A DNA stretch of 64,000 nucleotides from Gammaproteobacteria bacterium (GCA_965217605.1 CBDCJB010000017.1:142677-206676), one strand, 5' to 3'. Counted from the first letter of the stretch, positions 5,408-29,961 are shown. Program-made: numbers and translations. Notes: a model not told the origin generated them from the letters alone.

Positions 5408-5410
5408 GGA

Positions 5411-5460: not shown

Positions 5461-5479
5461 GCAGCTGGAGAGACGTTAT

Positions 5480-5786
5480 ATGAACAAAGAAATGATCCAC
5501 CGCGATACGGCCTACGATCAGAAGATGCATTATTCCCAGGGCGTCAAGATCGGACCTACGATCTACGTTTCCGGGCAGGTTGCGCTCGACGACGATGGGA
5601 GATGTGGTCAAGGTCACGACCTTTATTACGCAACGAACGTCGGGAATGGTTTCCTCTTACGACGAAGTTTTCGGCGAGTTCTTTCCACGTGATTGCCCCG
5701 CGAGCACGCTCGTCGAAGTCAAGAGCCTGGTGTTGAGAGATCTTTTAGTTGAGATCGAAGCCATCGCCGTAATAGGCGCCGCTTGA
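5480..5786 (+). pseudogene. second RidA-family gene split by a frameshift (ORFs 5480..5692 and 5580..5786)
   Basis: The first ORF carries RidA N-terminal motifs (GPTIYVSGQVALDDDGR). The second, in another frame, carries the RidA C-terminal motifs (DVVKVTTFITQ...FFPRDCPASTLVEVKSLVLRDLLVEIEAIAV). Together they make one ~105 aa RidA. Confidence 0.55.
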
Positions 5787-5800
5787 TTCGGAGCTGACTC

Positions 5801-6289: not shown

Positions 6290-6302
6290 GGAGGCGAATG
6301 AC

Positions 6303-7565: not shown

Positions 7566-7583
7566 GCGCGAGGAGAAACGACC

Positions 7584-8636: not shown

Positions 8637-8662
8637 TTGATACCATCCACGAGGCTAACGCG

Positions 8663-9412: not shown

Positions 9413-9437
9413 CAGTCGGTCGTCCGGCAACGCGCAC

Positions 9438-10694: not shown

Positions 10695-11434
10695 ACCGCG
10701 GCGAACTCGAAGAACTCAGGGATCGTATCGAGCATCTCGAAGCACGGGTGCTGGACGCGGAAGACCGCGAGGCGATCAAAACGTTGATCGTCGATTACGC
10801 GCGTGCCTGTGATCAGGGCAACGACCCGACGCTCCTAGCCCCACTGTTTACCGAGGATGCAGTGTGGGAATGCGAGGGATTCGGTAGCTACAAGGGTAGG
10901 GCGCGACTGTGTGCCGCGTTGAAAGGGATCGCCGGTGAGAAGATCTGGTGGTCGCTGCATTACATGATCTCGCCGAAGATCGAAATCGACGTTGGAAACG
11001 CCAGCGCGACGGTTTTCTGGTATCTGTGGGAATCCGCGACGATACCGGACGGCGTCACCGACCAACCCGAACCCCACTGGGTCGGCGCCACCTACGATGC
11101 GATCGCCGTCAAGGAGGCCGGGCGGTGGCACTTTCAGTCGATGCAGCTAAAACCCAATATGGTCAGTCCCTGTGCGGAGGGTTGGGTCGAGCGCCCCTTT
11201 CCAGCGGGTAGCGCGAAGGCGCCCTATTTTTCGAGACCGGAACCGGGCGCCTATTTATGGTGCGCGTGCGGCCGTTCAAAAAATCAACCCTATTGCGACA
11301 ATTCGCACAAAGGCCCGGCCATTAAACCGCTGAGATTCACGGTTGATTCAGACACGCTCCTGGCGCTGTGCGGATGCAAGCGCACCAATACCCCCCCGTA
11401 TTGCGATGGCACGCACTTGAACCTCGAATTGTAG
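10691..11434 (+). CDS. NTF2/SnoaL-like (RHO beta-subunit-like) domain fused to two CDGSH-type iron-sulfur domains
   Basis: N-terminal ~165 aa have an NTF2-like pattern (IVDYARACDQGN...FTEDAVWECEGFGSYKGRA...WHF). The C-terminus has two CDGSH motifs (CACGRSKNQPYCDNSHKG and CGCKRTNTPPYCDGTHL). The ATG overlaps the stop of the upstream Rieske alpha. Confidence 0.65.
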   Translation: MNRGELEELRDRIEHLEARVLDAEDREAIKTLIVDYARACDQGNDPTLLAPLFTEDAVWECEGFGSYKGRARLCAALKGIAGEKIWWSLHYMISPKIEIDVGNASATVFWYLWESATIPDGVTDQPEPHWVGATYDAIAVKEAGRWHFQSMQLKPNMVSPCAEGWVERPFPAGSAKAPYFSRPEPGAYLWCACGRSKNQPYCDNSHKGPAIKPLRFTVDSDTLLALCGCKRTNTPPYCDGTHLNLEL

Positions 11435-11878: not shown

Positions 11879-14356
11879 CTATTCGCCGGGCGGTGAAGAC
11901 AAACACGCCTGAATGCGTTCGGCCAGCTCGCCGACGTGCGGCTCTCGAAACAGCTCGCGATGATCCGTTCCGCTGAGCACCTCCACGCGGACATCGTGCG
12001 CGTATGTTCCCCATCCGAGAGCCCGGTCGCGCACCTGCCAGTACGGTTGCTTGCGCAAACGAAACACGGTCAGCTCGCCGTTGAACTTCGCGATTTCCCG
12101 CTTTGCGCTGGCGTATTGCACGTCTTGCTCCCAATGAGTCATCACCCCGTCAGCCGGTCGTCCGGAAATCACATCCGCAATCCAATGTCGCGCCGTCGCC
12201 AATCGGCGTGATCCTATTCGATGCAAGTTCGAGAGCAGCTTGCGCGCGGGAAGGCGTGCGAGCGATGCGGTACGACGGCCGTAATACAGCAACATGTTCC
12301 TTACTATGCGAATGTAAAACAGCCGTGAGACGGTATATTGCGCCGATGTGTCGACGATGCCGACCAACCCCACTGTTCGATCCTGCTCATAAAGTTGCTT
12401 GGCCATTTCGAACGCCAAGTGCGCGCCGGAGCACATGCCAACCAAATTCAAGGGCCCGCCGGTTTGTACGGTTTTGATCGCTGCGATGCACTTGCTCGCA
12501 AGGCTCGGGAACATGGACGCGTCCAATCTATTGAGATCCTGCTCGGCTACCGGTGGTTGCAATAGGTAAACCGGTTGCTCGGGATCGAGGTGGCGCGACA
12601 GCACAGCGTACCCGACTGCGTTAACCTCCGGCGCTGCGACGCAGAATAACGGGGGCTTTGCACCGTCTGGCTGAATGGCATTGACGATATCCTGATCAAC
12701 CGGCCAGCTTTGTTCCCAAAGCGCGCGCGCCATCTGCTCGACGGTCGGTATTCGGAACAGACCGAGCAACGGGATTGTCGCACCGGTGATCGATTCTAGC
12801 CGTGTGTGGAGTCCGGCAGCGTGGATCGAGTTTCCACCGATACGGAAGAAGTCGTCATCGGTGGCGAAGCGATCGATATCCAACACCCGCCGCCACTCGG
12901 CAATCAGCAGATCTTCCAATTCCGCGATTTCGATTCCCTGTTCGTGTCTCCGATCCCAGCTCGCGCTGGATCGGTCGTCGACTGTAGCGTTCTTGGAGTC
13001 GGCAGGTCTCGATGCCGTGTGAACGCCGGTTTTCGAGCGCAGGTCGGCTAAGGTGCCTAAGCGACAGTGCGGATCGGCGCCGACGATGCTCGTCACAATG
13101 CCAACGAAGCGTTCGAGCATTCGCTCGGTGTCGGTGAGGATGCGCGAGCGGGGCCCGGGGTAAGCGTGCAATGTTAGCTGAGGATCGGAATTGGAGATCG
13201 TCAAGGTCAGGGGATAGGTGGTAGACACCCAGCCTGTCGGCCCCCGAAGCTTCAAACCGTGCGGTTCGCGCGGTTCGTCCGCCGTAATGGACACCAACAG
13301 AGTATCGAATAATTGCTCGGTCGGACCGAGCTCGCTCCATGCATGAATCGCGGCGATTGAGACGTAATTGTATGGGGTCCGTTCTTGATGCGCGGCTTGA
13401 ATGTCGCGCAGCCACCGAACGAGTTCACTGTCGCCTTCGAGTCGCACCCTGACGGGCAGATTGTTGATGAAGGTGCCGATGATGGCGTCGACGCCCGCCA
13501 GATCGACGGGCCGCCCCGACACCGTGGCGCCGAATACTACATCTGCGCGACCCGAAAAGTGGTTGAGGAGCAGGGCCCAGGCGCCCTGGATGACGGTGCT
13601 CACGGTCAATCCATGCTGTCGCGCGAACGTGCGCAATGCCCGCGTCTCGTCGACCGACAATTCGATCGGGCAGCCAGAAGGTTCCGTATGTGTTTGCCCA
13701 CCATTGGGGGATTCCGCCGCAGCGGTAACCGGAGTCGGGATCGTGAACCCCTTCAATGCCGCGCACCAATAGCGTTCGGCCTTCGATCGGTCCTGGCCTT
13801 GAATCCAATTGATATAGTCTCGAAATCCTCGCACCTGCTCCATACTTACGGGATCCGGTTCCGTGGCAGAGGTATAGAAGGTGAATGCTTCCTGCCAGAA
13901 TATCCCGAGGCACCAGCGGTCCATTAACAAATGGTGGCAACTGCAGACGAGATAGTGGCTATCGGGCGCGAGCCGCATCAGGGTGAACCGCAACAGCGGC
14001 ACCTTCGTCAGCGTAAATCCGAGATGCCGATCAGCACGCCGAAACGCCTCCACACCGGCGAGTTGCTCCGCCGGCGACCGGTCGCTCCAATCCAAGAATT
14101 CGAACGGCACGTCTACTACACGGCGCACGACCTGCAGCGGCTGTTTGAGGTTTTCCCAAACGAATGCGGTCCTGGCAATCGGATGCCGGGCGATCACCTG
14201 TTGTATGGCTGAGCGCAGCCTCGAAGGGTCGAGCTGCCCGTGTATTTCATAGCAGAACTGGTTGAACAGCACGTCATCGCGCGGCGCCGAAACGGCGTGC
14301 AACAGCATGACCTCCTGCATCGGAGAGAGTGGGTACACGTCTTCGACGTTTTTCAT
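11879..14356 (-). CDS. NRPS termination module C-T-TE (no adenylation domain)
   Basis: 825 aa. C domain (LSPMQEVMLLH ... SCHHLLMDRWCLG). PCP (DDFFRIGGNSIHA). Thioesterase (GMCSGAHLAFEMA, GxSxG). No A-domain core motifs between C and T. Confidence 0.85.
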   Translation of the reverse strand: MKNVEDVYPLSPMQEVMLLHAVSAPRDDVLFNQFCYEIHGQLDPSRLRSAIQQVIARHPIARTAFVWENLKQPLQVVRRVVDVPFEFLDWSDRSPAEQLAGVEAFRRADRHLGFTLTKVPLLRFTLMRLAPDSHYLVCSCHHLLMDRWCLGIFWQEAFTFYTSATEPDPVSMEQVRGFRDYINWIQGQDRSKAERYWCAALKGFTIPTPVTAAAESPNGGQTHTEPSGCPIELSVDETRALRTFARQHGLTVSTVIQGAWALLLNHFSGRADVVFGATVSGRPVDLAGVDAIIGTFINNLPVRVRLEGDSELVRWLRDIQAAHQERTPYNYVSIAAIHAWSELGPTEQLFDTLLVSITADEPREPHGLKLRGPTGWVSTTYPLTLTISNSDPQLTLHAYPGPRSRILTDTERMLERFVGIVTSIVGADPHCRLGTLADLRSKTGVHTASRPADSKNATVDDRSSASWDRRHEQGIEIAELEDLLIAEWRRVLDIDRFATDDDFFRIGGNSIHAAGLHTRLESITGATIPLLGLFRIPTVEQMARALWEQSWPVDQDIVNAIQPDGAKPPLFCVAAPEVNAVGYAVLSRHLDPEQPVYLLQPPVAEQDLNRLDASMFPSLASKCIAAIKTVQTGGPLNLVGMCSGAHLAFEMAKQLYEQDRTVGLVGIVDTSAQYTVSRLFYIRIVRNMLLYYGRRTASLARLPARKLLSNLHRIGSRRLATARHWIADVISGRPADGVMTHWEQDVQYASAKREIAKFNGELTVFRLRKQPYWQVRDRALGWGTYAHDVRVEVLSGTDHRELFREPHVGELAERIQACLSSPPGE

Positions 14357-14420: not shown

Positions 14421-14768
14421 CTAACCATCGTCGAGGTCGCCGATTACGCGACTGAGACGGTCCAACTCCTCGTCGTCGAGCCCCGCGAGCGGAAAGTCCG
14501 ATGGCGTGAACCCGCCCGCATCCGGAGACTGACAATGATCGATTAGAACCTTAAGCGCCTGCATAAATTCACCAGCAACGCGCGCGATCGTGGCCTCGGT
14601 GTGAAGCCGCGACCCATAAGTCCAACCTACCCGAAGGGTCCCTTCGGCGATCAGTGCGGTTACCTTCAGTGCGCATCCGCGCAGCGCTCCGGGGTCGGAC
14701 GTGAAGTTGCCCGGCTCATAGAGCGGTCTGAAGATCGAAGAATCGGTAACGGACTGGTCCTTCCCCAA
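14421..14768 (-). CDS. C-terminal fragment of an NRPS E/C-like domain (frame-shifted continuation of 14716..16455)
   Basis: 115 aa ending ...GGFTPSDFPLAGLDDEELDRLSRVIGDLDDG. This is the same C-terminal signature as the end of the 1899-aa NRPS. It overlaps the previous ORF in a different frame. Confidence 0.5.
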   Translation of the reverse strand: MGKDQSVTDSSIFRPLYEPGNFTSDPGALRGCALKVTALIAEGTLRVGWTYGSRLHTEATIARVAGEFMQALKVLIDHCQSPDAGGFTPSDFPLAGLDDEELDRLSRVIGDLDDG

Positions 14769-16455
14769 GGCACTCGAAATTAATCTCCACGAGGTGTGCG
14801 GCCTGGAGTTCTTCGACTACAGTTTCATCGGCGTTCAAGTAGCGAAGCATCCCATAGCCCATTCCGGCCCCGGGAACCTGGCGAAGCTGTTCCTTAACGG
14901 CCTTCAGACATGCCCCCGGTTCCGGAGATCCTCCGGGATCCAGCGTCACTGGAAAGAACGCGGTAAAACACCCGACGGTGCGAGACAGGTCGACATTGTC
15001 GAACATCCCCTCACGACCGTGGCGCTCGATCCCGAGCGACACAGCGCGGGTCCCCATCCAGCCGCCCAAGGCCTGTACGAGCGCTGTCAGCACGACGTCG
15101 TCGATAACCGTCTGATACACCGCCGGCACGTCATGAAGCAACTGCCGCGTGTCCTCGGCACTGAGTTCGACCGTTAAGGTGCGCGCTGAACCCACGGTAT
15201 GTGCTGCCGCGCCCCCCTCGAGCTCCACCGGCACGCGGGCGCGTGAACCCGGCCGACGCCAGTAAGCGAGTTCCGGATAGGCGCGATCGGCATGAGCGTA
15301 TTCGTAAACACGCTCCGAGAACACCTTGAACGAGGTCGTTTTCGCCGGCAGCTCGACCGTCTCCCCGCGGCGCAGTTGCCGATAGGCGATCTCGAGGTCT
15401 TCGAGCAGGATCCGCCACGACACGCGGTCCACGGCCAGTTCGTGCACCATCAGCAGAATCCGGGGCGGGCGCGAGGCGCCGAACCGTATGATGGCCCCCG
15501 CCACGATCGCCCCCCGGCCGTAATCGAAACGCTGCCGCATCCGTGTCGCGATCGATTCTTGTTCTTGTGCCAGCGCTGCCTGGGAGATCGCAGAGAGATC
15601 GACTTCTGCGACGGAGACCTCCAATTCCGATGTGGCGACGTGTTGGCGCCATTGGGCGTCTTCGCGCTCGAAACAAAGACGCAGGGCGTCGTGATGTGCC
15701 ACCAGATAGCGCACCGCCTTTTCCAAGGTCGCCGTGCGCAGATCGATTGGCGCTTCCAGCAGAACGGACTGGCCCCAGTCTGCCGGGTTCTCGGCACCGA
15801 GCTCGAAGAAGCGATTTTGGATCGGTGTGAGCGGGACCGCCCCCGTCACCCCCCCTTGCTCCGATTGCGGTTCGCGATCCTCGTCCAACAACGCCGCCAG
15901 CTGGGCGATGGTGGGATTGTCGAAGAACTGCTCCGGCGTGATTCGGATCCCCGCTTGGATCGCCTTGGAGATGATCCTGATGCTCAAGAGCGAATCACCA
16001 CCCATTTCAAAGAAATCGTCGCGGATACCGACCGCATCGAATCCGAGAACCTCGGCCCAGATGTCGGCCAGGGTCTGCTCGACCGGCGTGCGCGGGGCGA
16101 CGAATGCATCTTCCGGCGCCTGGGTCTGCTCGCCGGGGTCGGGGAGGGCATTGCGGTCGATTTTTCCGTTCGGCATCAACGGCAATGCGTCCAGGAACAC
16201 GAATGCCGACGGCACCATGTAATCCGGCAGGCGTGCTTCCAGGAAGCCGCGTAATTCCGAAGCGTCAGTCGGCCGGTTCCCGTCGATCACCGCATAAGCC
16301 ACCAGCCGGCTATGACCCCCGACCGGCGTCGCCGGCCCGTCGGCGGATGCCCCGCTTGCTTCGTCATCCAAGCGCTGCTGGAGCCGACGCGAGAGGAACT
16401 CGAGCTTGTCGGGAGAGAGGTTTCGCACCCGGGTATAAAGATCACTCATTGCCAT
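14716..16455 (-). CDS. NRPS fragment: A9-A10 of adenylation domain, PCP, and N-terminal part of a degenerate epimerization-like domain
   Basis: RLVAYAV...LPDYMVPSAFVFLDALPLMPNGKIDR (A9/A10). DDFFEMGGDSLLSIRI (PCP). Then VHELAVDRVSWRILLEDLEIAY, an E2-like motif with the second His replaced. Confidence 0.7.
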   Translation of the reverse strand: MAMSDLYTRVRNLSPDKLEFLSRRLQQRLDDEASGASADGPATPVGGHSRLVAYAVIDGNRPTDASELRGFLEARLPDYMVPSAFVFLDALPLMPNGKIDRNALPDPGEQTQAPEDAFVAPRTPVEQTLADIWAEVLGFDAVGIRDDFFEMGGDSLLSIRIISKAIQAGIRITPEQFFDNPTIAQLAALLDEDREPQSEQGGVTGAVPLTPIQNRFFELGAENPADWGQSVLLEAPIDLRTATLEKAVRYLVAHHDALRLCFEREDAQWRQHVATSELEVSVAEVDLSAISQAALAQEQESIATRMRQRFDYGRGAIVAGAIIRFGASRPPRILLMVHELAVDRVSWRILLEDLEIAYRQLRRGETVELPAKTTSFKVFSERVYEYAHADRAYPELAYWRRPGSRARVPVELEGGAAAHTVGSARTLTVELSAEDTRQLLHDVPAVYQTVIDDVVLTALVQALGGWMGTRAVSLGIERHGREGMFDNVDLSRTVGCFTAFFPVTLDPGGSPEPGACLKAVKEQLRQVPGAGMGYGMLRYLNADETVVEELQAAHLVEINFECLGEGPVRYRFFDLQTAL

Positions 16456-16513
16456 TGCGAGGACCTCCTTGTACTCGATTCCGTGCCCGACTGTGTTCTC
16501 ATGCGGCGGCTTC

Positions 16514-17305
16514 CTACTTTACCGCGCGGACCACGACCATCGAGTTCGCCCACCACGCGTCCTTTACGTCATGCGGGAGGTTCAGAGAATCGATTACTCG
16601 CAGTTCGATCGAGTCGAAATACTTGAACAACAAGCGCTGATGGCCTCGGCTCAAGGAATCGATCTCATTCGTCAGGTAGGTGAATGCACCGCCTACACGT
16701 GTGTGTGCCGCCGCCGTCGGCATGAAATGCTCGGCGAACGTCGTGCTGTCTGCAACGTGTTCCAAACGTTCGGACTCGTTGAGCGGATAAGTGTGGAAGA
16801 ACACGCCATCGTAGACGTCGAGTTGCCCGATAACATCCTGCCAGCGACCGTGGATCAAGCGGATGTCCGCGTCGGGATAGCCGTTCCGCCATGCGTGAAA
16901 GCGCTCCACGATCGAATCGTTGCATTCGATGATGGTGTGCGAATTGACCCCCTGCGCCTGGATATATGCAGACGAGACGCCGAGCCCGAACCCGACTTCC
17001 AGGACGTCTCCGTGGGACGCCGTAACGGCCTCAGCCATGGCATTCATCAACGGTCGCTGCCAGCTCTCCATGATCTCCTCGTCCGCGAGCTTCGCTTGGG
17101 TACGATCTTCGAGCGGCTGTGCGTCGGCCCCCGGTACCAAGTCACGCGAGATCTCGTCGAGTTGTGCAAGATCGTCGACGAACTCGTTGAGCGCGCGATT
17201 GAGCAGCCAATTCTTTTGTGCATCGCGTGGCGGGTGAATGAACGCTGCATTCTTGATCTGGAGTGAGACGTCAAAGTCTCGCAGTCGCTTGAATCTCTTC
17301 GTCAT
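16514..17305 (-). CDS. class I SAM-dependent methyltransferase domain, apparently the insert of an interrupted NRPS A domain
   Basis: 263 aa. SAM motif I VLEVGFGLGVSS. Lies between an ORF carrying A1-A8 and an ORF carrying A9-A10, in a different frame from both. Confidence 0.65.
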   Translation of the reverse strand: MTKRFKRLRDFDVSLQIKNAAFIHPPRDAQKNWLLNRALNEFVDDLAQLDEISRDLVPGADAQPLEDRTQAKLADEEIMESWQRPLMNAMAEAVTASHGDVLEVGFGLGVSSAYIQAQGVNSHTIIECNDSIVERFHAWRNGYPDADIRLIHGRWQDVIGQLDVYDGVFFHTYPLNESERLEHVADSTTFAEHFMPTAAAHTRVGGAFTYLTNEIDSLSRGHQRLLFKYFDSIELRVIDSLNLPHDVKDAWWANSMVVVRAVK

Positions 17306-17370
17306 TGCTGCGTCCTCAGAAAACCGCCTAAACAGATGCGCTGGTCTCGTGCCATCGCGCCGAATCCGAT

Positions 17371-20265
17371 CTAGCCGCTGTGGGCCAATAGAACCTTCAC
17401 CGCTTCGTCGGAGAGTGACTCAGTTTCAGCGAGAATTTCATCGGCCACCTGCTCGGCGACATCAGCCAGTAGTTTGGCAACACGCTCGGTATCGGCACGC
17501 ATGTTGGCCCCACCGTCCTCGCGGGCGAGCACCACCGCCTCCTCGACCGCATCGTGGCTCGTCAACGCGGTTCTGATTTCTTCGAGCTCGACCCGATACC
17601 CTCGAATCTTGATCTGATCATCGATTCGCCCGAGGAACTCGATGTTGCCATCCGCGCGATAGCGGGCGAGATCGCCGGTCCTGTACACCCGTTCCTCGGG
17701 ACCATCGCCGATTCGCAATGCCAGAAATCGATCGTCGGTCAGCTCGGCTCGATTGAGATAACCGCGGGCAACACCTTCACCGCCAATGTGCAGCTCGCCG
17801 GGCACCCCCACCGGTACCAATTGACGGGTAGCATCCAGTAGATAGATCCGCGTATTGGCGGGCGGACGCCCGATCGGGACGGGTGTGGCTACGCTCTCCG
17901 GGGGCACGCGAAACACCGTACACCACACCGTGCCCTCGGTCGGACCATATTCGTTGAATAGCGTAGCGTGTGTCATCTTCGCGTGGTGACGGGCAAGCAC
18001 GTCCGGCGCACACGCCTCGCCCGCGACGATGACGGTTCGCATCGATTGCAAATCCGCGGCTTCAGCGTGATCGAGCAGCAGATGGTAGAGCGACGGAAGC
18101 AACAGTGTGTGTGACACCGCGTGCTCGGCGATCAAAGCCGCCAGCCGACCCATATCCTGCTCGATCCGGTGCGGCGGCAAAACCAAGGTTCCGCCCAGTG
18201 ACAAAGTCCAGAAGATACCGGCCACCGAGCTGTCGAACGCAATGGACGAGAGCAATAGAAATCGTTCGACGGGATCGGCGTAGTAACGCGTTCGCGCACA
18301 GGTGGAATGAACCAGGTTGCGGTGCGTGACTTGCACGCCTTTGGGTGCACCGGTCGAGCCGGAGGTATAGATCACATAGGCGAGATTCTCGGGCAGCCCC
18401 ACACTCGCCGGGGGATGTTCCGGAGACCGTGCGATCTCATCGAAGTCCGCATCGAGACGCAGCGTGGGGCAGTCACATGGAATCGCCGGTGATTGCGGTG
18501 CCGTTAGCAGCACGCGGGCACCGGCGTCTTCCACAATGAGTGCTTGGCGTTCCGGTGGGTAGTCCGGTTCTATCGGCACGTAGGCGCCACCGGACTTTAG
18601 AATACCCAGGATGGCGACGATCATCTCGATAGATCGCTGCATGCATACCGCGACACATGTCTCTGGTCCGACGCCCAGCGCTTGCAGATGATTCGCGAGC
18701 TGATTTGCCCGCCGGTTCAAGGCCAGGTAGGTCAGTTCCTGTCCCGGAAAAGCGACCGCGACCTTGTCCGGGAATGTCTCGGCCTGCCGTTCGATCAAAT
18801 GGTGAATGCACGCATCGCGCGGAAAATCAGCGCCTGTATCGTTCCACTGCACCGCTATCATCCGCCGCTCGTCTTCGCATAGAAGCGAGAGCTCCGATAG
18901 GCGACCGTCGGGATTGCCGGCGATGCCTTCGAGCACGGTTCCCAGATGACCGAGCATTCGGTCGATGGCCTGCGCTTCGAACCGCGCCGTATCGTATATC
19001 GCGATCAATCGAAGGCGCTCGTCCGGCGAAACCAGGATCGCCAGCGGGTAGTTGCTTCGTTCTAGGTACTGAGGATCGGCGATCTTCAGGCGATCGTCGG
19101 TGTCGAAGGAGAAGGTGAGTGGATGATTTTGAAACACCAGGATGCTTTCGAATAGTGCCCGTGCGTGCGGAATATCGCTCCAGCGCTGGATGTCCAGCAG
19201 CGCGCTGTGCTCGTGCTGGCGCATGGCCACCATCTGCGCTTGAATCGAATCGAGCCAGGCGCGCAAGGACTCGGTATTTGACATCCGGATCCGGACCGGC
19301 AGCGTGTTGATGAACAGGCCCACCATGTTCTCGACCCCATTTAGACTCGCGGGCCGGGTGGCCACCGTAGCGCCGAACACGAGGTCTTCGTCGCCGGTAT
19401 AGCGGTTGAGCAGGAGCGCCCACGCCCCCTGAACGATCGTGTTCAGCGTCAATCGATTGTCCATGGCCATGGATTGGAGCGCGCTCGTAGCAGCTTCGGC
19501 CAATTCGAACTGCCGCTGCGCGTACCCGCCTTCCGGGGCCGCGCGCGAAGTTGACGACGGCGCATCGCGGTGGCCGCTGACGCCCGGGTATCCGCGCTCG
19601 GCGGGCAGCCGGGTTGGCGCCGTGAACCCAGCGAGCTCCTTGCTCCAATACGCCCTGGCAGGAGAAGGGTCTTGGCGCTCGAGCCAGGAGACGAAGTCAC
19701 GAAACGGACGGGTAGGCGACGCCTCCGACATCTCGCTCGTTACCGACACCGGGTTACCTGCGTCGCGGAACGCCTGGTAGCGCGCAAAGACCTCTTTTAG
19801 AACCAGGCGCACCGACCATCCATCCAGTAGCAAATGATGAAAACTCCAAACGAATCTATGGGTCGTATCTTCGAATCGAATGAGCAGAAACCGCATGAGT
19901 GGGGCGCGGTCGAGCGTAAAGCCTTGCTCTCGATCGGCTTTGAGCACCGTGGTCAGCCGTTGGTTTCGAAGGTTCGCTGGCATACCCCGCCAATCCTGGT
20001 GCTCCCAGGGAACGCGAACGTGCTCCCGCACGATCTGAAGCGGCTTGTCGCGTTTTTCCCAGGTGAAAAGTGTACGTAGTGCGGCGTGCCGTTCTACGAC
20101 CTGATCCCACACGCGCTCGAAAACCGGAACGTCCAGATCGCCGCGCAGTGCACAGGCGTATTGCTCGAAATAGGTGCCCGACCCGGGTGAATAGAGGGTA
20201 TGAAACAACATCCCTTCTTGCACGGGGGTGAGACGGTAGACCGCTTCTATGTTGTCCTTAGCCAC
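17371..20265 (-). CDS. NRPS fragment: condensation domain + adenylation domain motifs A1-A8 (module 2, N-terminal part)
   Basis: 964 aa. C domain (RLTPVQEGMLFH, HHLLLDGWS). A3 YVIYTSGSTGAPKG. A5 NEYGPTE. A7 YRTGDLARY. A8 GRIDDQIKIRGYRVELEEI. Ends shortly after A8 with no A9/A10. Confidence 0.8.
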   Translation of the reverse strand: MAKDNIEAVYRLTPVQEGMLFHTLYSPGSGTYFEQYACALRGDLDVPVFERVWDQVVERHAALRTLFTWEKRDKPLQIVREHVRVPWEHQDWRGMPANLRNQRLTTVLKADREQGFTLDRAPLMRFLLIRFEDTTHRFVWSFHHLLLDGWSVRLVLKEVFARYQAFRDAGNPVSVTSEMSEASPTRPFRDFVSWLERQDPSPARAYWSKELAGFTAPTRLPAERGYPGVSGHRDAPSSTSRAAPEGGYAQRQFELAEAATSALQSMAMDNRLTLNTIVQGAWALLLNRYTGDEDLVFGATVATRPASLNGVENMVGLFINTLPVRIRMSNTESLRAWLDSIQAQMVAMRQHEHSALLDIQRWSDIPHARALFESILVFQNHPLTFSFDTDDRLKIADPQYLERSNYPLAILVSPDERLRLIAIYDTARFEAQAIDRMLGHLGTVLEGIAGNPDGRLSELSLLCEDERRMIAVQWNDTGADFPRDACIHHLIERQAETFPDKVAVAFPGQELTYLALNRRANQLANHLQALGVGPETCVAVCMQRSIEMIVAILGILKSGGAYVPIEPDYPPERQALIVEDAGARVLLTAPQSPAIPCDCPTLRLDADFDEIARSPEHPPASVGLPENLAYVIYTSGSTGAPKGVQVTHRNLVHSTCARTRYYADPVERFLLLSSIAFDSSVAGIFWTLSLGGTLVLPPHRIEQDMGRLAALIAEHAVSHTLLLPSLYHLLLDHAEAADLQSMRTVIVAGEACAPDVLARHHAKMTHATLFNEYGPTEGTVWCTVFRVPPESVATPVPIGRPPANTRIYLLDATRQLVPVGVPGELHIGGEGVARGYLNRAELTDDRFLALRIGDGPEERVYRTGDLARYRADGNIEFLGRIDDQIKIRGYRVELEEIRTALTSHDAVEEAVVLAREDGGANMRADTERVAKLLADVAEQVADEILAETESLSDEAVKVLLAHSG

Positions 20266-20298
20266 TTGGGATCACACCGTGCGATACGATGCGCAGGA

Positions 20299-23200
20299 TC
20301 AGTCCGTCGATTCGCGAAACTCGGGGACAATGTCATCGAGGCCTTGCTGATCGAGATCCGCTTCCGGGAAATCCGATGGCGTATAGCCGCCAGCACCGGG
20401 ACGTGTGCAATGGGCGATCAGCTCGCGCAAGGATCCCAAAAACGTATCGGCGAGCCATACGATGGTTTCGCGAAGATGGGCGCCGTCACAATAGCGCCAC
20501 TCCACGCATAATTTCGCACCGCGAACCGTGCTGTCGATCGCCAGCAGGTGCCTGCGCGCGTTGCGCGAGTCGTGGGCTCTAGTCGGCCCGCCCGTCAGCC
20601 GGAACGCGAAGCCCGAACTCGAAACGGGTCCCGCTTCCTGGTGGTGAAAGAGCACCTGCGCGGACGAATCGCGCTGAGCGCTCATCGTAGGCGTCTCGCG
20701 CAGATAGCGATCAGCCCCGAATCCGATACCGTGATCGGGAATCGCACGCAGTTGTTCCTTCACCGCTTTGATCTCCGCCTCCGGATCGCCCGAGCTCGAC
20801 GAATGCGCCGGCGGGCGTTCTGAATCGACGCTGCTCAAACTCAAGGCCACCGGTGCGATTGCGGTGAACCGTCCGACCGTACGCAGCAGATGTTCTCCCG
20901 TGACGATCGCTTCGCGAACGTCGCGCTGCAAGTCGAGCGTTAATGACCTTGCACCGCTCCAGCGCTCGTTGGCTCGTAGGAGGCTCGTCAACAATAGATC
21001 TTCAGTTTGCGTGTTGTACGCAGCGGGCACATCGTTCAGCAACACCCGCGTCTCGTCAGCGTCCAATGATACTGATACCACACCCGTCGATGCCTCCGCG
21101 CAGTCGTCTGGCGGCTCGACGTCTTGCGGAATACGTGGCGATTCCGCTTCCAGTTGCCTCGACCAGTACGCCAGCTCGGCGTCCACTTGTCGTGACTCGG
21201 CGTGCTCGACAAGCGCTTCAGCCCACTGCTTGAACGCGAGCGTTTTCAACGGCAGCCGAATCGACCCGGCACGACGATACTGCGCGTAGGCGGACTCGAG
21301 GTCCTCGATGAGGACGTCCCAAGAGCGCCGGTCCACCGCCAGTCCATGCGCCACCAGCACGATTCGATCCGGCTTGCCGGGTCCGAGCGCGAACCCGGCG
21401 GCCCGTAGTAATACGCCCGCCTCGAAGCTCATCGCTGCGTTCAACTCGCGCTCGGTGGTCTCGATAGCCGTTTGCTGCGCTTGCGCGCTTCGACCCGACA
21501 GATCGATACGCAGCAGCGACATGTCGTCAACGCCTGAATGAACCTGCCGGCATTCCGAAGAATCGCGGGTAAATCGCAGCCGTAGCGCGTCGTGGTGCCG
21601 GATCAAGGCCTGCAATGCGGCCTGCAGCGCGTCGAAGTCCAACGCTTCGGTGGATTCGAGGGCGACCACCTCGTTCCAGTCGGCGGGCGCCGGATGCCCT
21701 GGTTCGAAGTACCAATGCTGGATCGGGGTCAGCGGTACGGGGCCCGTCACCGCGCCCTGCGCCGGGTGATGATAGGGATTCAATCCAACCACCTTCGCCA
21801 ATTCGCCCACCGTGGGGTGGTCGAATATCTGCTTGGGTGAGACTTGCAAGCCTCGTTGATTGGCGCGCGCCACGATCTGGATATTGAGTATGGAATCACC
21901 CCCGAGCTCTAAAAAGTCGTCGTCGACGCCGATCTGCTCCACGCCCAACACCTGGGACCATATTCGAGCCAGAACAGTTTCGATCTCGGTGCTCGGTGCG
22001 ACGTATTCGCGGTTCAACGCAGGACGGTCGGTTCCACTCGCCGCCAGCCGACTTCGATCCACTTTGCCGTTGGGCGTTAGCGGAATCTCGTCGAGCCTGA
22101 CGAATCGCGATGGGATCATGTGTTCCGGGAGCCGCTCGGAGAGATGGTCTCTCAGCTTGGACACCGTGATCGGCGCCTCAGAGACGTAATAGGCGGACAG
22201 TCGCTTTGCGGTCCGCTCGACAGCCCGCAAATTCGTGCTGAAACCGATGTCATGAAGGATCTTCTCGACCTTGGATGCGTCGATGTCGTCGTCGAGCTCG
22301 TCGAGCGCGGCCTGTCTGGTTTTGTGCCCCAGTCGAACGTCCCAACTATAAGGCAGCGCATAATTGTGAAATCCGCGCTCCTTCTTATGCACATAAATGC
22401 CCGCTTCGTTGATCAGGCAGTTCGTAGAGCGCCCCGTATCGGCGGGTCGAATCCACGGCGCCTTGGTCGACAAAAAGGTGAGGATCTGCGCCAAGGTCAC
22501 GCCGCAGTAACGATAAAAGTCGATGAACCGGATCTCGTCAAAGGTCTCGTCACGCTCGAAGATCTTCACGTCGAGGCAGCTCGATACGACATCATCCATC
22601 CGGTGGTACGCCTTGCGCGCCTCCAAGATGGTTTGCTCGATGCGATTGACGTCGAAGATATTGTTACGGTACATGTCGGCGAGCCGGGTCTCGAAGATCT
22701 CTCCCCTGGAGAGCCCGGTGACGATGAATCGAATGCCCTTCTCCCGTGCCAGATTGGTGCTCAACGTGTAGATGGTCTTAAAGCACCCATTGCAAACATT
22801 GCTGTGCGCCATCAGGCTGTTGACGAAGATGGCATTCATTGCAGGCGTCTCGGCGAAAACCAAGTCCAAGCCCAGTGCGTCGACCACCCGCCGGATATTG
22901 GCTTTCGCCCCCTCGGAGATAAAGCCATTGTCCAAGCTGAACACGAGCGGGGTGAGACCCATCTCGACGAGTTGATACAGGACGTAAGTGCTGTCCTTCC
23001 CCCCGCTCAACAGCATCAAGCAGTCGTACGCGCCGCGGTGAGTGTCCCGCTCCTCGAAGAGGATCCGGCGCAACTCGTCCATGGAGCCGAAGTACGCCAT
23101 GGCGCGGTCCCGGTAGCGATCGTATGACTCGCACAGGTTGCAGATGCCATCGGGGCTCAAGGTCGCCTCGGGATGATTCGAGGACAGGCCGCAGCGTACG

Positions 23201-25998
23201 CAGTACTCGGCTGTTTCGGGAACGCTCCGTTCGTACCGGCAAACGTCGGCGACGCACGCACTGATGCGATCGTGGGCCAGCAACGCAACTTCGATCTCAC
23301 CGAGCTCGATGCGCGCGCCGCGGATCTTGACCTGATGGTCGGTACGACCCACGAGCTCGATGTGCCCGCGCGAGTTCCAGCGCGCCAGGTCTCCCGTTCT
23401 GTACATCGTGCACGTTGAGTCCGCGAGGTCGGGAAGAAATCGCGCTGCCGTCTGCGCTGGTTGATTTAAATAACCGGTCGCCACGCCTTCCCCGGCGATA
23501 TAGATCTCCCCGACAACGCCGGCCGGCACCGGCTCCAAGTGGGGATCGAGCAGATAGATCCAGGCATTCCCCGCCGCCCGTCCGATCGGCACCGATGCGT
23601 CGCAGTCCACCTCGGCGTCGAATTGATGAATCATGCAGGCGACGGTCGCCTCGGTCGGGCCGTATTCGTTGTAGATTTTGAGCCCGGCGCGCGATTCGGC
23701 GACGGCCGCGGCCAGCTCGGTCTTGAAGTCCTCACCGCCGGCGATGAGTTGCACGAGCTTAGCGGTATCGGCGATTCGATCCTTGATTAGCGCAAGGTGC
23801 GAGGGCGTCAGCTTGATGACGTCGACAGCGTCATCCTCGATGACGCGCAAGATGGAGACGTCGTGCGCGGCGTCGTCTTCGCCATAGACGACGACTGTTC
23901 CGCCAGTCACCAGCGGCACGAACATTGAAGTCACGGTAAGGTCGAAAGAAAACGATGAGTACAAGGGAAAATCACCGCGCTCACCGTTCAAGTACTGCTC
24001 TCGCGCCCACCAGATGTAGTTGAGCAGGCTACGTTGCGTGATCATTACGCCTTTCGGCGTCCCAGTGGAGCCCGAGGTATAGATCAGGTAGGCCAAATCG
24101 TCTCGGCCTGCGGCGCTGATCGGAGCCACCTGTTTTCCCTTTGCGATCGCGCCCCACTCAGTGTCGATGCAGATGACTGACGGGACACCCGCCTTTGCAC
24201 CGCGTTCCATACGGTCTGGCAACCGTTCGACCAACAACGAGTGGGTCAATACGATCGGCGCCCGCGTATCGTCGAGCATGAAGTCGAGCCGCGACTTGGG
24301 ATAGGCCGGATCCAGTGGCACATAGGCGGCGCCCGCTTTGTGCACTGCGAGAACGCTGACGATCATTTCGGGGGATCGATGCAGACAGATGGCCACGCAC
24401 GCGCCGGGCCCGGCCCCCCGCTCGCGTAGGTAGTGCGCGAGTCGGTTTGCGCGCTCGTCTAGTTCTCGATAGGTCAGCGCAGGTCCAACTTCCGGCGGCG
24501 ACGCAACACTGGACTTGGCCAGTACCGCGATCGCATTGGGCGTACGTTCGGCCTGGGCGGCGATCAGCTCCACCACCGAACCCTGGCTCGGATAGGCCAT
24601 TCGTGGGCGGTCGTCTACACCTAGAAAATGGGCCTTCTCGTCTTCGGAGAGGAGTCTAATGAGAGCGATAGCTTGCTCGCGGTTATCAATGAACGCATCG
24701 ACGATGCGCAGGAACTGCGCAATTGCGAGACGACGTTGCTGCTCATCGAAGACGTCACAATTAAAGTCGAAATGCAGCCGCACGGTCCCGGTTTCATCGA
24801 AGTCGTGCACTTGAACGCGAAGGCTGTGCCCCCGATCCCCGGCGCCGGGGTGAATCCATTCCGAGCGCATGGGCAGCCCATTGAAATCCGCAAAGGTCGC
24901 GTTGATGAAGTTCAACACGACGTTATAAGCGCGGTTTGACTCCGGGTTACTCGCACCGGGCTGCGCGAAGCGCAGCGACGCGTTTGTCTCGTAGGTGACC
25001 TTGCGAATCAGCGTGGCAAAGCTTTCGCCTTCCGATAGCTCGATCTGTAGTGGGAACAGCTCGATGAACAAGCCGATAGTTTCCTTGAATGCAGCGGTCG
25101 ATCGGTTATGCGCCGGCGTTCCAATCGCCAGCTTGTCCAATCCGCTGACTCGATGCAGATAGGCAAACAACAGTGTCGCGAAAATGTTGAACAACGACAT
25201 ATCCAGGGTGAGTGAGCGAATACCCTTCTCCATCGCAATCGCCTTGAGGCGCTCGCTGCGCTCTCGCCCGAGATCGCACAATACCCGTTCGGTACGCGTC
25301 GACTCGTGCGATGTCGGTACGCCGTAGAAGCGGATGCGTTCCGGCACATCGAGCGCTTTGGATGCCCAGTATCTGGCAGCTTTATCGAATTGCTGAGAGC
25401 GCCTGTGACGCTGCTCGAACTCGGCGTAGTCCTGAAATTGAGGAAGGTCTTCGGCCTCGTTGAGCCGGCCGGCGCACGCGAGTTGGTAGTACTCGGCCAT
25501 CCGGCGGTAGAGTACCGCCTTGGCCACACCGTCAGTGATGAGGTGATGCTGGTTGAGATACCAGACGAAGCGGTCCTCGGCCAGCTTGATCAGGGCGGTA
25601 TCGACTAAGCGCTCGCTGAGGTGGAATTGAAACACGCGTCGCTCATCCAACCACCGTAGCTGCAGGGCGTCCGGATCGGGGTTCGAGGACCAATCCAGCA
25701 TCTCGATATCGTGCGGGAGCGAGTCGAGGACCCGCCGTTGAGGTACGCCGTCGACTTCCCCGATGACGGTTCGCATCGCGTCACTTTTGGATGCCAAGGT
25801 ACGAAATGCGCGTTCAAAGGCCTCGGGCTGGATACTCCCTGCGATCGTGAACGTCAGGATCATGTTGTACAGGGGCACATCCGGATTGAACTTCTGCCCC
25901 AGCCAGATCTGAAATTGACTGTTGGTGAGATTGGATCTGTGGAATATCTCCTCGGCGGATTGCGGGTGGGAGATCGGGTTGGCCATCGTCGAATTCAC
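20299..25998 (-). CDS. NRPS module 1: starter-type C domain, interrupted A domain (PP-loop amidotransferase-like insert), PCP, degenerate E-like domain
   Basis: 1899 aa. C (HHLITDG). A1-A8 (LTYRELDERANRLA, YTSGSTGTPKG, NEYGPTE, GRTDHQVKIRGARIELGEIE). ~340-aa insert with CVRCG...CNLC plus SGGKDS. A9/A10 (LPEHMIPS...LTPNGKVDR). PCP (LGGDSIL). Terminal domain with AHGLAVDRRSWDVLIEDL. Start may be GTG at 25998 or ATG at 25986. Confidence 0.85.
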   Translation of the reverse strand: MNSTMANPISHPQSAEEIFHRSNLTNSQFQIWLGQKFNPDVPLYNMILTFTIAGSIQPEAFERAFRTLASKSDAMRTVIGEVDGVPQRRVLDSLPHDIEMLDWSSNPDPDALQLRWLDERRVFQFHLSERLVDTALIKLAEDRFVWYLNQHHLITDGVAKAVLYRRMAEYYQLACAGRLNEAEDLPQFQDYAEFEQRHRRSQQFDKAARYWASKALDVPERIRFYGVPTSHESTRTERVLCDLGRERSERLKAIAMEKGIRSLTLDMSLFNIFATLLFAYLHRVSGLDKLAIGTPAHNRSTAAFKETIGLFIELFPLQIELSEGESFATLIRKVTYETNASLRFAQPGASNPESNRAYNVVLNFINATFADFNGLPMRSEWIHPGAGDRGHSLRVQVHDFDETGTVRLHFDFNCDVFDEQQRRLAIAQFLRIVDAFIDNREQAIALIRLLSEDEKAHFLGVDDRPRMAYPSQGSVVELIAAQAERTPNAIAVLAKSSVASPPEVGPALTYRELDERANRLAHYLRERGAGPGACVAICLHRSPEMIVSVLAVHKAGAAYVPLDPAYPKSRLDFMLDDTRAPIVLTHSLLVERLPDRMERGAKAGVPSVICIDTEWGAIAKGKQVAPISAAGRDDLAYLIYTSGSTGTPKGVMITQRSLLNYIWWAREQYLNGERGDFPLYSSFSFDLTVTSMFVPLVTGGTVVVYGEDDAAHDVSILRVIEDDAVDVIKLTPSHLALIKDRIADTAKLVQLIAGGEDFKTELAAAVAESRAGLKIYNEYGPTEATVACMIHQFDAEVDCDASVPIGRAAGNAWIYLLDPHLEPVPAGVVGEIYIAGEGVATGYLNQPAQTAARFLPDLADSTCTMYRTGDLARWNSRGHIELVGRTDHQVKIRGARIELGEIEVALLAHDRISACVADVCRYERSVPETAEYCVRCGLSSNHPEATLSPDGICNLCESYDRYRDRAMAYFGSMDELRRILFEERDTHRGAYDCLMLLSGGKDSTYVLYQLVEMGLTPLVFSLDNGFISEGAKANIRRVVDALGLDLVFAETPAMNAIFVNSLMAHSNVCNGCFKTIYTLSTNLAREKGIRFIVTGLSRGEIFETRLADMYRNNIFDVNRIEQTILEARKAYHRMDDVVSSCLDVKIFERDETFDEIRFIDFYRYCGVTLAQILTFLSTKAPWIRPADTGRSTNCLINEAGIYVHKKERGFHNYALPYSWDVRLGHKTRQAALDELDDDIDASKVEKILHDIGFSTNLRAVERTAKRLSAYYVSEAPITVSKLRDHLSERLPEHMIPSRFVRLDEIPLTPNGKVDRSRLAASGTDRPALNREYVAPSTEIETVLARIWSQVLGVEQIGVDDDFLELGGDSILNIQIVARANQRGLQVSPKQIFDHPTVGELAKVVGLNPYHHPAQGAVTGPVPLTPIQHWYFEPGHPAPADWNEVVALESTEALDFDALQAALQALIRHHDALRLRFTRDSSECRQVHSGVDDMSLLRIDLSGRSAQAQQTAIETTERELNAAMSFEAGVLLRAAGFALGPGKPDRIVLVAHGLAVDRRSWDVLIEDLESAYAQYRRAGSIRLPLKTLAFKQWAEALVEHAESRQVDAELAYWSRQLEAESPRIPQDVEPPDDCAEASTGVVSVSLDADETRVLLNDVPAAYNTQTEDLLLTSLLRANERWSGARSLTLDLQRDVREAIVTGEHLLRTVGRFTAIAPVALSLSSVDSERPPAHSSSSGDPEAEIKAVKEQLRAIPDHGIGFGADRYLRETPTMSAQRDSSAQVLFHHQEAGPVSSSGFAFRLTGGPTRAHDSRNARRHLLAIDSTVRGAKLCVEWRYCDGAHLRETIVWLADTFLGSLRELIAHCTRPGAGGYTPSDFPEADLDQQGLDDIVPEFRESTD

Positions 25999-26664
25999 GC
26001 AGATTCACGGTAATGGTCGGTAGCGCAGTTCACGGAGTGCAACCTCGCAGGTTTTCGACAATTGCCGCTATCGAGCCAAAATCCTTCAACAGAAAGTTTT
26101 CTGAAAAGATCCCCACATCGAAGAACGCCTCTACGGAGCCGACTAAGCGCATTAAACCCGGGGCATCGATCAATTCGCCGGTGACCATAGGTTCACCTGA
26201 TCCGACCTTCGGTTCATCGTTCGACGGCGTGGGGTAAACGACACGCGGAACCGCAACGCCGTTGCTTCCTTTACATCGTCGTAGGATATCATCGCCGCTT
26301 CGACTCCATCGGACCCGTACTATAGCCCCGCGACTTGATTTGCCGCGGCTCGGGACACAGAAACTTACAATTCCTCTCGGCCTGGCGTCGGGCTAGATCG
26401 CCAGCGACAAATCGATTGGCCGAACTGTCGATGATGCGTGACAGTAGGTGTAGCGTTCGCAACCCTGACATCTCGGGATTCGGGGTCCCTCGTCGTGACA
26501 CGTCGGGGATCGATGTGGACATCTGCGTCGATAGGAATTGAAACTGCCCGTCGGGTGTATCGTTTGCAGCAAACAGACGACGCGTTGAAGATGGCCGAAT
26601 TAGCGCAAACGATCGGCACCTATGTGAGCATGAACCTATCGCAGCCTCCGTCTGGATCGAAACC

Positions 26665-28149
26665 ATGACCGAACCCGGACCGCTGGCGGGACTCGGCCGA
26701 CGCATGGCGAGGGGGGCAGCGTGGACCGTCGCGTTGCGCGTAGCGGTTCGTGGGCTCGGACTGTTAAGCACCATCATCCTCGCCCGCCTGCTGGTTCCAG
26801 CGGATTTCGGTTTGATTGCCCTTGCGACCTTACTCGCGGCCTCGCTCGAGTTACTTAGCGCATTCAACTTTCGCATTTGGCTGCTCCGCCACCCCAACCC
26901 CGAGCGCGAGCACTACGACACCGTGTGGACGCTGTCCATCATCAGGGGTGCCCTGACCTGCGTGGGACTATGGCTTCTCGCCCATCCTGCCGGCGCGTTT
27001 TTTAACGAGCCGCGACTTGCCGATGTGGTCATGATCCTGGGCGTCGCCACGGCGGTGGGTGCATTTCAGAACGTCGGCATTATCGATTTCCAGAAATATC
27101 TCGATTTCGACAAGGATTTTCGGCTCTTGCTCGGCGTCCGGTTCGGCTCGTTCATCGTCACCGTTAGTCTCGCATTCTGGCTACGCACGTACTGGGCGCT
27201 GGTTGCCGGACTGGCCGCCATTCAGTTATTGACCCTGATACTCAGCTACACCATGCACTCGTTTCGCCCGCGGTTATCGTTGCGGCGCTGGCGTGAGGCA
27301 TTCGACTTCTCAAAATGGCTTTTGGTCGGCAACCTTTTGCTGTTCCTGTACACGCGAGCCGATACCTTCATTCTCGGCAGGCTGGTCAACAGTCAGCTCT
27401 TGGGCCTGTATACGATGGCACACGAGATCGCCGAACTCGCGACATCCGAGCTCGTCGAGCCGCTTCGTCGCGTGATGCTCCCCGGTTACGCCCAGATGAT
27501 GGTCGATACGCCCGCTCTCAAGCGGGGTTTTGTGGATGGATTTGCCCTGGTTTTGCTAATCGGGTTCCCGTGCGCGGCCGGCATCGGCCTGACTGCCGAT
27601 CCGGTGGTGCGGGTACTACTCGGCGAGAAGTGGCTCGAGTCGATCCCATTGATACAGATTCTCGTCGTCTACGGACTTGCGTCCGTAGCGTTGGCCAACC
27701 AGGGGCCGATTTTGCTCGCACTCGGGTACACGCGTCTACTCACCGCGCTCACCGCGATTGGGCTGGCCATCATCGTGCCCGCGTTCACCTGGGCAAGTAC
27801 CCGTTTCGGGCTGTCGGGCGGCGCCTGGGCGGTGGGCGTCACGCACATGGCGATGCAATCGCTCACGTTGGCAATGACGTTGCGGGTTTTGCATATTCCG
27901 GCCCGGGACGTGTTGCGAGATACTTGGCGAATCGCGGCTGCGACCTCGGTCATGACGCTTTCGGTACTTGCAGTGCAAGCCGGGCTCGAGGACGTGGAAG
28001 ACGGGCCGGTCGCGATGCTGGCCATGAGCGTCGTAACCGGCGCGATCGCCTACGCCGCGACGGTCCTCGCGCTGTGGCACTTCTGCGGTCGCCCCAAGGG
28101 ACCCGAGCACTTGGTGGTGGCGTTCGTCCGCGAGCGCTTGGATAAATGA
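26665..28149 (+). CDS. MOP-superfamily polysaccharide-biosynthesis/PST-family flippase-like transporter
   Basis: 494 aa, ~12-14 predicted TM helices. N-terminal AAWTVALRVAVRGLGLLSTIILARLL is typical of Wzx/PST flippases. Divergent from the NRPS. Confidence 0.65.
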   Translation: MTEPGPLAGLGRRMARGAAWTVALRVAVRGLGLLSTIILARLLVPADFGLIALATLLAASLELLSAFNFRIWLLRHPNPEREHYDTVWTLSIIRGALTCVGLWLLAHPAGAFFNEPRLADVVMILGVATAVGAFQNVGIIDFQKYLDFDKDFRLLLGVRFGSFIVTVSLAFWLRTYWALVAGLAAIQLLTLILSYTMHSFRPRLSLRRWREAFDFSKWLLVGNLLLFLYTRADTFILGRLVNSQLLGLYTMAHEIAELATSELVEPLRRVMLPGYAQMMVDTPALKRGFVDGFALVLLIGFPCAAGIGLTADPVVRVLLGEKWLESIPLIQILVVYGLASVALANQGPILLALGYTRLLTALTAIGLAIIVPAFTWASTRFGLSGGAWAVGVTHMAMQSLTLAMTLRVLHIPARDVLRDTWRIAAATSVMTLSVLAVQAGLEDVEDGPVAMLAMSVVTGAIAYAATVLALWHFCGRPKGPEHLVVAFVRERLDK

Positions 28150-28218
28150 CCGCTGTCGGAAATACACGCGGGTGACGTCATGCTCGACGCGGTAGCCACA
28201 ACTCAGAAAAACGAATAG

Positions 28219-29907: not shown

Positions 29908-29961
29908 AACTTCGGGATCGAAGCAACCCTCGCTTGGCTAGCTACCGGCTTCGTAACCACG

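Follow-up and report, generated by a model that had tools for sequence, protein, structure and literature searches.

Two consecutive epimerization domains of a gammaproteobacterial peptide synthetase have lost the second active-site histidine and are probably inactive

In a 64,000-nucleotide stretch of DNA from a Gammaproteobacteria bacterium (GCA_965217605.1 CBDCJB010000017.1:142677-206676; the whole stretch is called the window below), the minus strand carries a five-gene nonribosomal peptide synthetase (NRPS) cluster made up of g1, g2a, a methyltransferase gene, g2c and g3. The subunits encoded by g1 and g2c each end in an epimerization (E) domain, named here E1* and E2*, in which the second histidine of the HHxxxDG active-site motif has been replaced. 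We consider it probable that E1* and E2* are genuine E domains that are catalytically dead in this lineage and have been retained as a scaffold and docking platform. An original prediction, made from the sequence alone, had suggested inactive E domains kept for structure as one of several readings, and it is this one that the data support best. The domains, their active-site motifs and the conserved blocks that follow the motifs are located as follows:

20299 to 21756, minus strand: E1*, epimerization-family domain at the end of g1
14421 to 15843, minus strand: E2*, epimerization-family domain at the end of g2c
21328 to 21348, minus strand: E1* active-site motif HGLAVDR (in AHGLAVDRRSW), second His replaced by Gly
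15424 to 15444, minus strand: E2* active-site motif HELAVDR (in VHELAVDRVSW), second His replaced by Glu
21324 to 21298, minus strand: SWDVLIEDL block of E1*, located by sequence match
15420 to 15394, minus strand: SWRILLEDL block of E2*, located by sequence match

The motif and tail strings quoted in the original prediction are present exactly, on the minus strand, and Pfam places a PP-binding domain directly before both terminal Condensation-superfamily domains. The accompanying claim that both NRPS modules end in E-like domains is accurate in that the two terminal domains exist, but module 2 is divided among three genes and E2* is frameshifted in the window. The loss of the second His is as described, with Gly in E1* and Glu in E2*, and the motif concerned is indeed the active-site motif: when E1* is aligned to solved E domains with HMMER, ahglavdrrsw falls on ihhlvvdgvsw, lqrdvrea on leghgrea, and lfhhqe on tfnylg.

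The degeneration extends beyond this motif. All signature motifs of E1* are degenerate (HH to HG, EGHGRE to LQRDVRE, TVGWFT to TVGRFT and FNY to FHH), corresponding to the column changes H138G; E277Q, H279D and G280V; W296R; and N371H. E2* is altered more mildly, with changes at H135E and W292C (HH to HE, TVGWFT to TVGCFT); ERHGRE and the Asn of FNY are kept, and INFECLG preserves FNY(L)G in part. E1* thus retains none of the EGHGRE/TVGWFT/FNY(L)G signature, and E2* a portion of it. Three conserved columns are changed in both domains; in each, the TVGWFT Trp and another conserved Glu are altered. In each the residue after the motif Asp is Arg, encoded by CGG in E1* (21328-21330) and by CGC in E2* (15424-15426).

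Loss of the second His is rare among relatives. The 120 nearest database homologues read HH in 119 cases and HQ in one, and the 67 E domains of related loci comprise 64 HH, 1 PH, 1 NH and 1 HQ, so that the second His is kept in 66 of 67. The closest syntenic cluster, on a metagenome scaffold (L001), encodes five proteins that are 58, 56, 71, 52 and 47% identical to those of the window, and its E domains read HHLAVDG and HHLAVDA. Because this orthologous cluster keeps HH in both domains, both losses in the window are derived, and two such losses within one assembly line are unlikely to be independent accidents. One further degenerate case, beyond the 67, occurs in a gammaproteobacterial metagenome-assembled genome (L004, 10871-12826), where the motif reads RAVCVDA and 33 of 57 conserved columns are gone. 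An HQ motif accompanied by otherwise intact motifs is seen in the g1 orthologue of L048 (1359-7163) and in the cyanobacterial protein P0077.

The replacement of the motif Gly by Arg, which the original prediction had listed beside the His loss, is real and is found in 0 of the 67 relatives and 0 of the 120 database matches. The motif Gly, however, is not conserved in the family; the residue after the Asp varies among the 67 relatives (A in 23, G in 18, S in 6, N in 5, and others), and the change to Arg weighs less for that reason. Its presence in both domains could reflect either chance or parallel adaptation.

Both domains are true members of the E subtype, not C or X domains, a classification in which solved domains of the Protein Data Bank (PDB) served as proxies for the E and D-donor condensation (DCL) types. 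When E1* was compared with all PDB sequences by HMMER, the top 10 matches were all solved E domains; the strong matches include PvdL E2, TycB3 E, TycA E, GrsA E and BacC E, with E-values from 1e-73 to 1e-48, and the best non-E sequence reached only 1e-9. An AlphaFold model, built for E1* with 55 homologues (pLDDT 89.2, pTM 0.90), predicts that the fold is intact. A Foldseek search of the PDB with this model returned E domains for the top 13 matches (TM 0.77-0.86), followed by C domains, with a glycopeptide X domain at rank 44. JGI labels homologues of these domains as family TIGR01720. The alternative that would have undermined the original prediction, an ordinary LCL or DCL condensation domain in which the motif had been misaligned, is thus rejected, with C domains far behind E domains in both sequence and fold matches and HGLAVDR set on HHLVVDG of the solved E domains. 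The position of E1* and E2*, after a thiolation (T) domain and before a DCL-clade C domain, is that of an E domain; what they lack is the second His of HHxxxDG.

To compare the degree of constraint along the synthetase, we defined conserved columns by a threshold of at least 85% conservation across relatives and tallied, domain by domain, where the window deviates. For E1* the count is 16 of 64 (rank 1 of 15), and for E2* it is 14 of 59 (rank 2 of 35, behind the L004 domain). In the rest of g1, the counts are 4/90 for the C domain, 2/110 for the adenylation (A) domain, 7/145 for a PP-loop insert, 1/17 for the C-terminal subdomain of the A domain (Asub) and 0/27 for the T domain; in g2c they are 0/10 for Asub and 0/20 for T, and in g2a 0/37 for C and 3/110 for A. 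The methyltransferase deviates at 6/90 columns. In g3 the counts are 2/37 for C, 1/12 for T and 4/17 for the thioesterase (TE), whose catalytic Cys and His are kept. The share of deviating columns is therefore 24-25% in the E domains versus 0-8% elsewhere, the TE excepted.

A relative-rate test in which L001 served as the sister lineage and identities to outgroups were compared gave a similar picture. Both E1* and E2* are 5.6 identity points further from the outgroups than the L001 orthologues are, for 13 of 13 outgroups with E1* and 32 of 32 with E2*, whereas the differences for the other domains range from about -5 to +4 identity points. The window and L001 share about 50% amino-acid identity and their synonymous sites are saturated; within the population we found 3 synonymous and 4 non-synonymous single-nucleotide polymorphisms (SNPs). 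By these sequence measures the relaxation of constraint is specific to the E domains and accrued while the rest of the synthetase stayed constrained. The argument of the original prediction that the same substitution in both modules speaks against random decay is not supported, since the His replacements differ (Gly versus Glu) and the data show relaxation specific to the E domains.

Trivial origins of the paired motifs were considered and set aside. A recent duplication or gene conversion is rejected as the source of E1* and E2*: the two do not pair in a neighbour-joining tree, they share 51% nucleotide identity over their length and 63% near the motif, and their Arg is encoded by different codons. 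In that tree, which is star-like and poorly resolved, E2* pairs with g2c of L001. Nor are the motifs sequencing noise, because HGLAVDR and HELAVDR are carried by two independent Logan assemblies, L084 and L085 (99.9% identical).

A change of substrate does not account for the losses either. Specificity codes, taken by GrsA numbering and verified on 1AMU, read DLTKIGEVCK for the A domain of g1 and DSALIAEVWK for that of g2a, and are identical or nearly so to those of relatives with intact E domains. The former is, we assume, an Asn-like code, and both substrates are presumably chiral. Because the codes are unchanged, a switch to an achiral substrate does not explain the loss of E function. A Pfam scan of the 20 larger open reading frames (ORFs) of the window found no racemase or trans-epimerase, and no P450 or other candidate partner gene.

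The C-terminal tails of the two subunits have not shared the fate of the E cores. They are located as follows:

20302 to 20382, minus strand: C-terminal tail of g1, TPSDFPEADLDQQGLDDIVPEFRESTD, COM-donor-like with a predicted terminal helix; TPSDFP at 20382-20365
14424 to 14507, minus strand: C-terminal tail of g2c, TPSDFPLAGLDDEELDRLSRVIGDLDDG, COM-donor-like; TPSDFP at 14507-14490

Both show the features of COM donors, namely a 20-30-residue acidic helical tail after TPSD(F) and a partner C domain whose N-terminus reads ...(I/V)E(A/D)(V/I)Y(P/R)L(T/S)P(V/M)QE; the partners begin with AKDNIEAVYRLTPVQEGM in g2a, which is COM-acceptor-like, and MKNVEDVYPLSPMQEVM in g3. The g1 tail aligns with the cis E-to-C junction of PvdL (E2-C3), the E1* model has a terminal helix predicted at residues 470-484, and a solved cis-E-COM-C structure (9rde) is among the E1* fold matches. 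Over the last ~35 residues of g2c (GGxTPSDFPxAxLDxxxLD...), identity to outgroups is 47.0% for the window versus 45.5% for L001. The L004 protein likewise keeps a docking tail, ...TPSDFPLAALDQSELDHISDLMGDLDID, though its E core is down to ~20% identity. The GG(Y/F)TPSDFP tail, which the original prediction had noted in both domains, is not peculiar to them but an ordinary E-to-C junction (COM region) present in nearly all homologues. The tails probably dock onto the N-terminus of the next subunit's C domain.

The C domains of g2a and g3 best match C domains that stand after E domains, those of McyB (C1), PvdL (C3), BacC, TycB1 and SrfA-C, at 200-410 bits compared with at most about 120 bits for LCL domains. 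We take these reference domains to be of the DCL type, and on sequence both downstream C domains belong to the D-donor (DCL) clade.

The best-supported interpretation of these results is that E1* and E2* have lost epimerase chemistry in this lineage and would be retained as a folded spacer between the T domain and the subunit end, and as the carrier of the TPSDFP...helix tail that would dock onto the next C domain. The aminoacyl or peptidyl thioester on the T domain would then remain unepimerized and be taken up directly at the donor site of the next C domain. The first two residues of the product would probably stay L as long as the DCL-clade C domains accept L donors; otherwise flux through the line would be poor. 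Mutagenesis of GrsA by Stachelhaus and Walsh in 2000 reportedly found that replacing the second His abolishes epimerization.

Several observations weigh against this interpretation. The case for inactivity is built on residue loss, and E2*, which keeps ERHGRE and the Asn of FNY, has in the Glu at the second-His position a potential base, so that residual E2* activity is conceivable. The downstream C domains are typical of the DCL clade and bear no sign of excess divergence or adaptation, which fits awkwardly with a working line that passes L donors. The 64-kb window is without the genes for acyl-AMP ligase, acyl carrier protein (ACP) and DUF6702 that adjoin about 36-40 related loci, and the whole pathway may be under relaxed selection. 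In addition, the g2c gene of this strain carries a lesion:

between 14759 and 14758, minus strand: 2-bp (CG) deletion frameshifting E2*, shared with L085 and absent from L084

The frameshift leaves ORFs at 14716-16455 and 14421-14768 and puts the g2c tail out of frame with the E2* core, and the docking role of E2* is therefore compromised, at least here. Homopolymer or assembly error as its sole cause is rejected: the missing bases are a CG dinucleotide, and because L085 (run ERR13605531) has the same deletion although it is 6 SNPs apart from the window, the deletion is a real polymorphism. The other allele is intact. L084 (a Logan contig, 99.89% identical, run ERR13602196; site 2563-2566) encodes an unbroken 678-aa g2c that still reads VHELAVDR.

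These features could be taken to mean that the cluster as a whole is decaying in a lineage that no longer uses the pathway, the E domains showing damage first without being kept for anything. We regard this as unlikely. The frameshift in two assemblies 6 SNPs apart would fit such decay, as would the missing acyl-AMP ligase, ACP and DUF6702 genes, the absence from the window of the ABC exporter pair that flanks L001 and L010, the 4/17 deviations in the TE, and a g3 variant in a sister assembly (P0130, 770 aa) whose C-terminus diverges from residue ~747. Set against this are the 0-8% deviation in the other domains and the retention of HHxxxDG by three C domains, of GGDS by the T domains and of Cys and His by the TE, together with the uninterrupted 1899- and 964-aa ORFs and the intact g2c allele. 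The excess divergence is limited to the E cores and built up while the remainder was constrained; because the pattern is domain-specific, E inactivation preceded any decay of the cluster.

It is very improbable that the two domains are still epimerases that work through substitute residues, such as the Glu at the second-His site of E2* or the new His of FHH in E1*. E2* does combine ERHGRE and the Asn of FNY with a carboxylate at the position of the base, the predicted fold of E1* is that of an intact E domain, and DCL-clade C domains downstream would make sense if D donors were still supplied. The second His is nevertheless kept in ~97-99% of homologues, its replacement in GrsA is said to abolish epimerization, E1* lacks all three signature motifs at once, and the loss of a quarter of the conserved columns with faster divergence is the pattern of a lost function. 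We give least credence to a repurposing of the domains, whether as an X-domain-like recruitment platform, as the original prediction had proposed, or in another role such as an active-site plug controlling T-domain traffic. The Arg shared by both domains and found in no relative or database match, gained with different codons and so without gene conversion, and the three conserved columns changed in both could be read in this way, and the trans-acting methyltransferase must be recruited somehow. The domains, however, are of the E clade and not LCL-derived like X, which appears only as fold match 44; they do not stand before the TE in a terminal module; the 20 scanned ORFs include no P450 or partner gene; relatives whose E domains are intact possess this trans methyltransferase as well; and no further lineage sharing the motif turned up to indicate a maintained state. 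A related idea, which we consider quite improbable, is that E1* and E2* are adapted non-catalytic modules in which independent gains of Arg and the three shared column changes followed the His loss, or, as a variant, that E2* uses its Glu as base. If this were true, the changes might close a dead active site or retune T-domain traffic so that L intermediates reach C domains of the D-donor clade, and the assembly line would have been stereochemically rewired by nature without domain deletion.

The genes of the cluster, and the cassette that makes up its second module, are as follows:

20299 to 25998, minus strand: g1, NRPS subunit 1 (1895-1899 aa), C-A-T-E1*, from the ORF, its translation and Pfam
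17371 to 20265, minus strand: g2a (964 aa), DCL-clade C domain and core of the module-2 A domain through motif A8, from Pfam
16514 to 17305, minus strand: free-standing methyltransferase (263 aa), similar to guanidinoacetate N-methyltransferase (GAMT), between the halves of the module-2 A domain
14421 to 16455, minus strand: g2c, Asub (A9, A10)-T-E2*, represented in the window by ORFs 14716-16455 and 14421-14768
11879 to 14356, minus strand: g3 (825 aa), DCL-clade C-T-TE with a Cys nucleophile, the acceptor subunit for g2c, from NCBIfam, PDB matches and TE alignment
14421 to 20265, minus strand: split module-2 cassette; also L001 6263-12006, L002 6247-12007 and many of L004-L083

Pfam finds Condensation, AMP-binding, PP-binding and Condensation domains in g1, and its L001 orthologue (58% identity) has a matching architecture. 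The ORFs of g1 (1899 aa) and g2a (964 aa) are unbroken. The terminal subunit, g3, has no A domain, and the nucleophile of its TE is Cys (GxCxG) in the window and in 25 of 26 relatives. The C domain of g3 reads HHLLMDRWC, with DR for DG, as it does in L001, L004, L010 and L083.

Module 2 is a naturally exploded, interrupted A domain, spread over C-Acore (17371-20265), the methyltransferase (16514-17305) and Asub-T-E (14421-16455). The A core of g2a stops after A8 with a helical tail, and the Asub-T-E protein opens with a conserved M..L..R..LSP.K..LL..RL helix. The layout C-Acore / GAMT-like methyltransferase (PF27704) / Asub-T-E / C-T-TE recurs in L001 and L002, and because it does so the three-gene arrangement is not damage. 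The PF27704 assignment is a precomputed Pfam match in orthologues; the window methyltransferase is 71.5% identical to the L001 protein. Searching genome contigs with the methyltransferase as anchor turned up 140 related places in many phyla. Both flanks of the methyltransferase are split in 32 of 81 methyltransferase-bearing loci, and contig ends curtail many of the remainder. Pseudogenization as the origin of the three-ORF module is ruled out by this recurrence together with the matching gene split in L001 and L002. Literature searches for the split-A-domain cassette, and for a GAMT-like methyltransferase with an NRPS, gave nothing specific.

The A domain of g1 is itself interrupted, by the ~330-aa PP-loop insert between A8 and A9 (22234-23211, minus strand), which contains CxxC...CxxC and SGGKDS. 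The insert has no Pfam or NCBIfam match. It is the best-conserved NRPS domain of the cluster, with 72% identity to L001, and only the separate methyltransferase protein is comparable. In CysH and AlbIV, an AMDH domain acts on T-bound Asn by dehydrating or isomerizing it (PMC7966384), and the g1 insert, lying in an A domain with an Asn-like code, fits that published description.

On one side of the cluster lie catabolic genes (hydantoinase A/B, Rieske oxygenases and a catechol dioxygenase; 1587-11434), and on the other polysaccharide flippase-like and GDSL/AlgX-like genes (26665-31299); among the adjoining genes there are none for transport or regulation as is typical of a complete biosynthetic cluster. 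A 202-aa ORF upstream of g1 (26289-26897) looks spurious, being of low complexity and overlapping a plus-strand Wzx-like gene. Most related clusters elsewhere carry the acyl-AMP ligase, an 81-aa ACP and DUF6702 (L001 1-540 and 14568-17177; ~36-40 of L004-L083), and a TonB-dependent receptor gene lies near the L002 cassette. A recent paper describes DUF6702 as a "metal sequesterase" for Ni/Co/Cu in the periplasm (PMC12537917). The product of the widespread cassette might be an acylated metallophore.

For annotation, the present case means that an E call does not justify the prediction of a D residue, and stereochemistry predicted here in the manner of antiSMASH would probably be wrong at two positions. 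In terms of NRPS evolution and engineering, the case is a further example of an E core decaying while the domain and its COM-like tail persist, of which L004 is an extreme form. Such persistence is in keeping with the idea that the E domain belongs to the interface between subunits and is not simply deletable. The combination of a dead E domain, an unchanged DCL-clade C domain and chiral substrates could be a natural test of how strict donor-side stereoselection is. The finding on E1* and E2* leaves current understanding unchanged.

E1* and E2* belong to a kind of inactive E domain that has already been documented. LgrA has the organization C2A2T2E2*; its E*, which closes the subunit ahead of LgrB, is an inactive epimerization domain and probably an ancestral remnant (PMC11824870, PMC10510592, PMC8150014). 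Like it, the window domains are of the E family and without epimerase function, as far as their residues indicate, and follow a T domain at a subunit end before the C domain of the next subunit; they share the E clade, the lost catalytic residues and the subunit-terminal position with the LgrA type, a likeness drawn from published description. LgrA differs in that its module 2 loads achiral Gly, which makes the E domain redundant, whereas in the window the codes are unchanged, the substrates are presumably chiral, and the loss touches two subunits in a row. In StaB and ComB, the E domains of module 3 are also considered inactive, and the C domains downstream of them are reported to have changed stereoselectivity (PMC1894796). 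These module-3 domains too are former E domains inside otherwise working assembly lines; the downstream C domains of the window, by comparison, are still typical DCL domains without excess divergence. The glycopeptide X domain is LCL-related, occupies the final module ahead of the TE and serves to recruit Oxy P450s (PMC8949500, PMC1894796). E1* and E2* resemble the X domain of Tcp12 (PDB 4TX2/4TX3) as condensation-superfamily domains with a mutated HHxxxDG that would serve as non-catalytic platforms, but they belong to the E clade and close a subunit ahead of a C domain, and the 20 larger ORFs scanned include no P450. With the canonical E-COM pairs (TycA, GrsA, TycB3, BacC and PvdL E2-C3), they share the fold, the clade, the site after a T domain, GGxTPSDF with a short helix, and a DCL partner. 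In these canonical E domains HHxxxDG, EGHGRE and FNY are intact, whereas both window domains are without the second His, and E1* is without all three.

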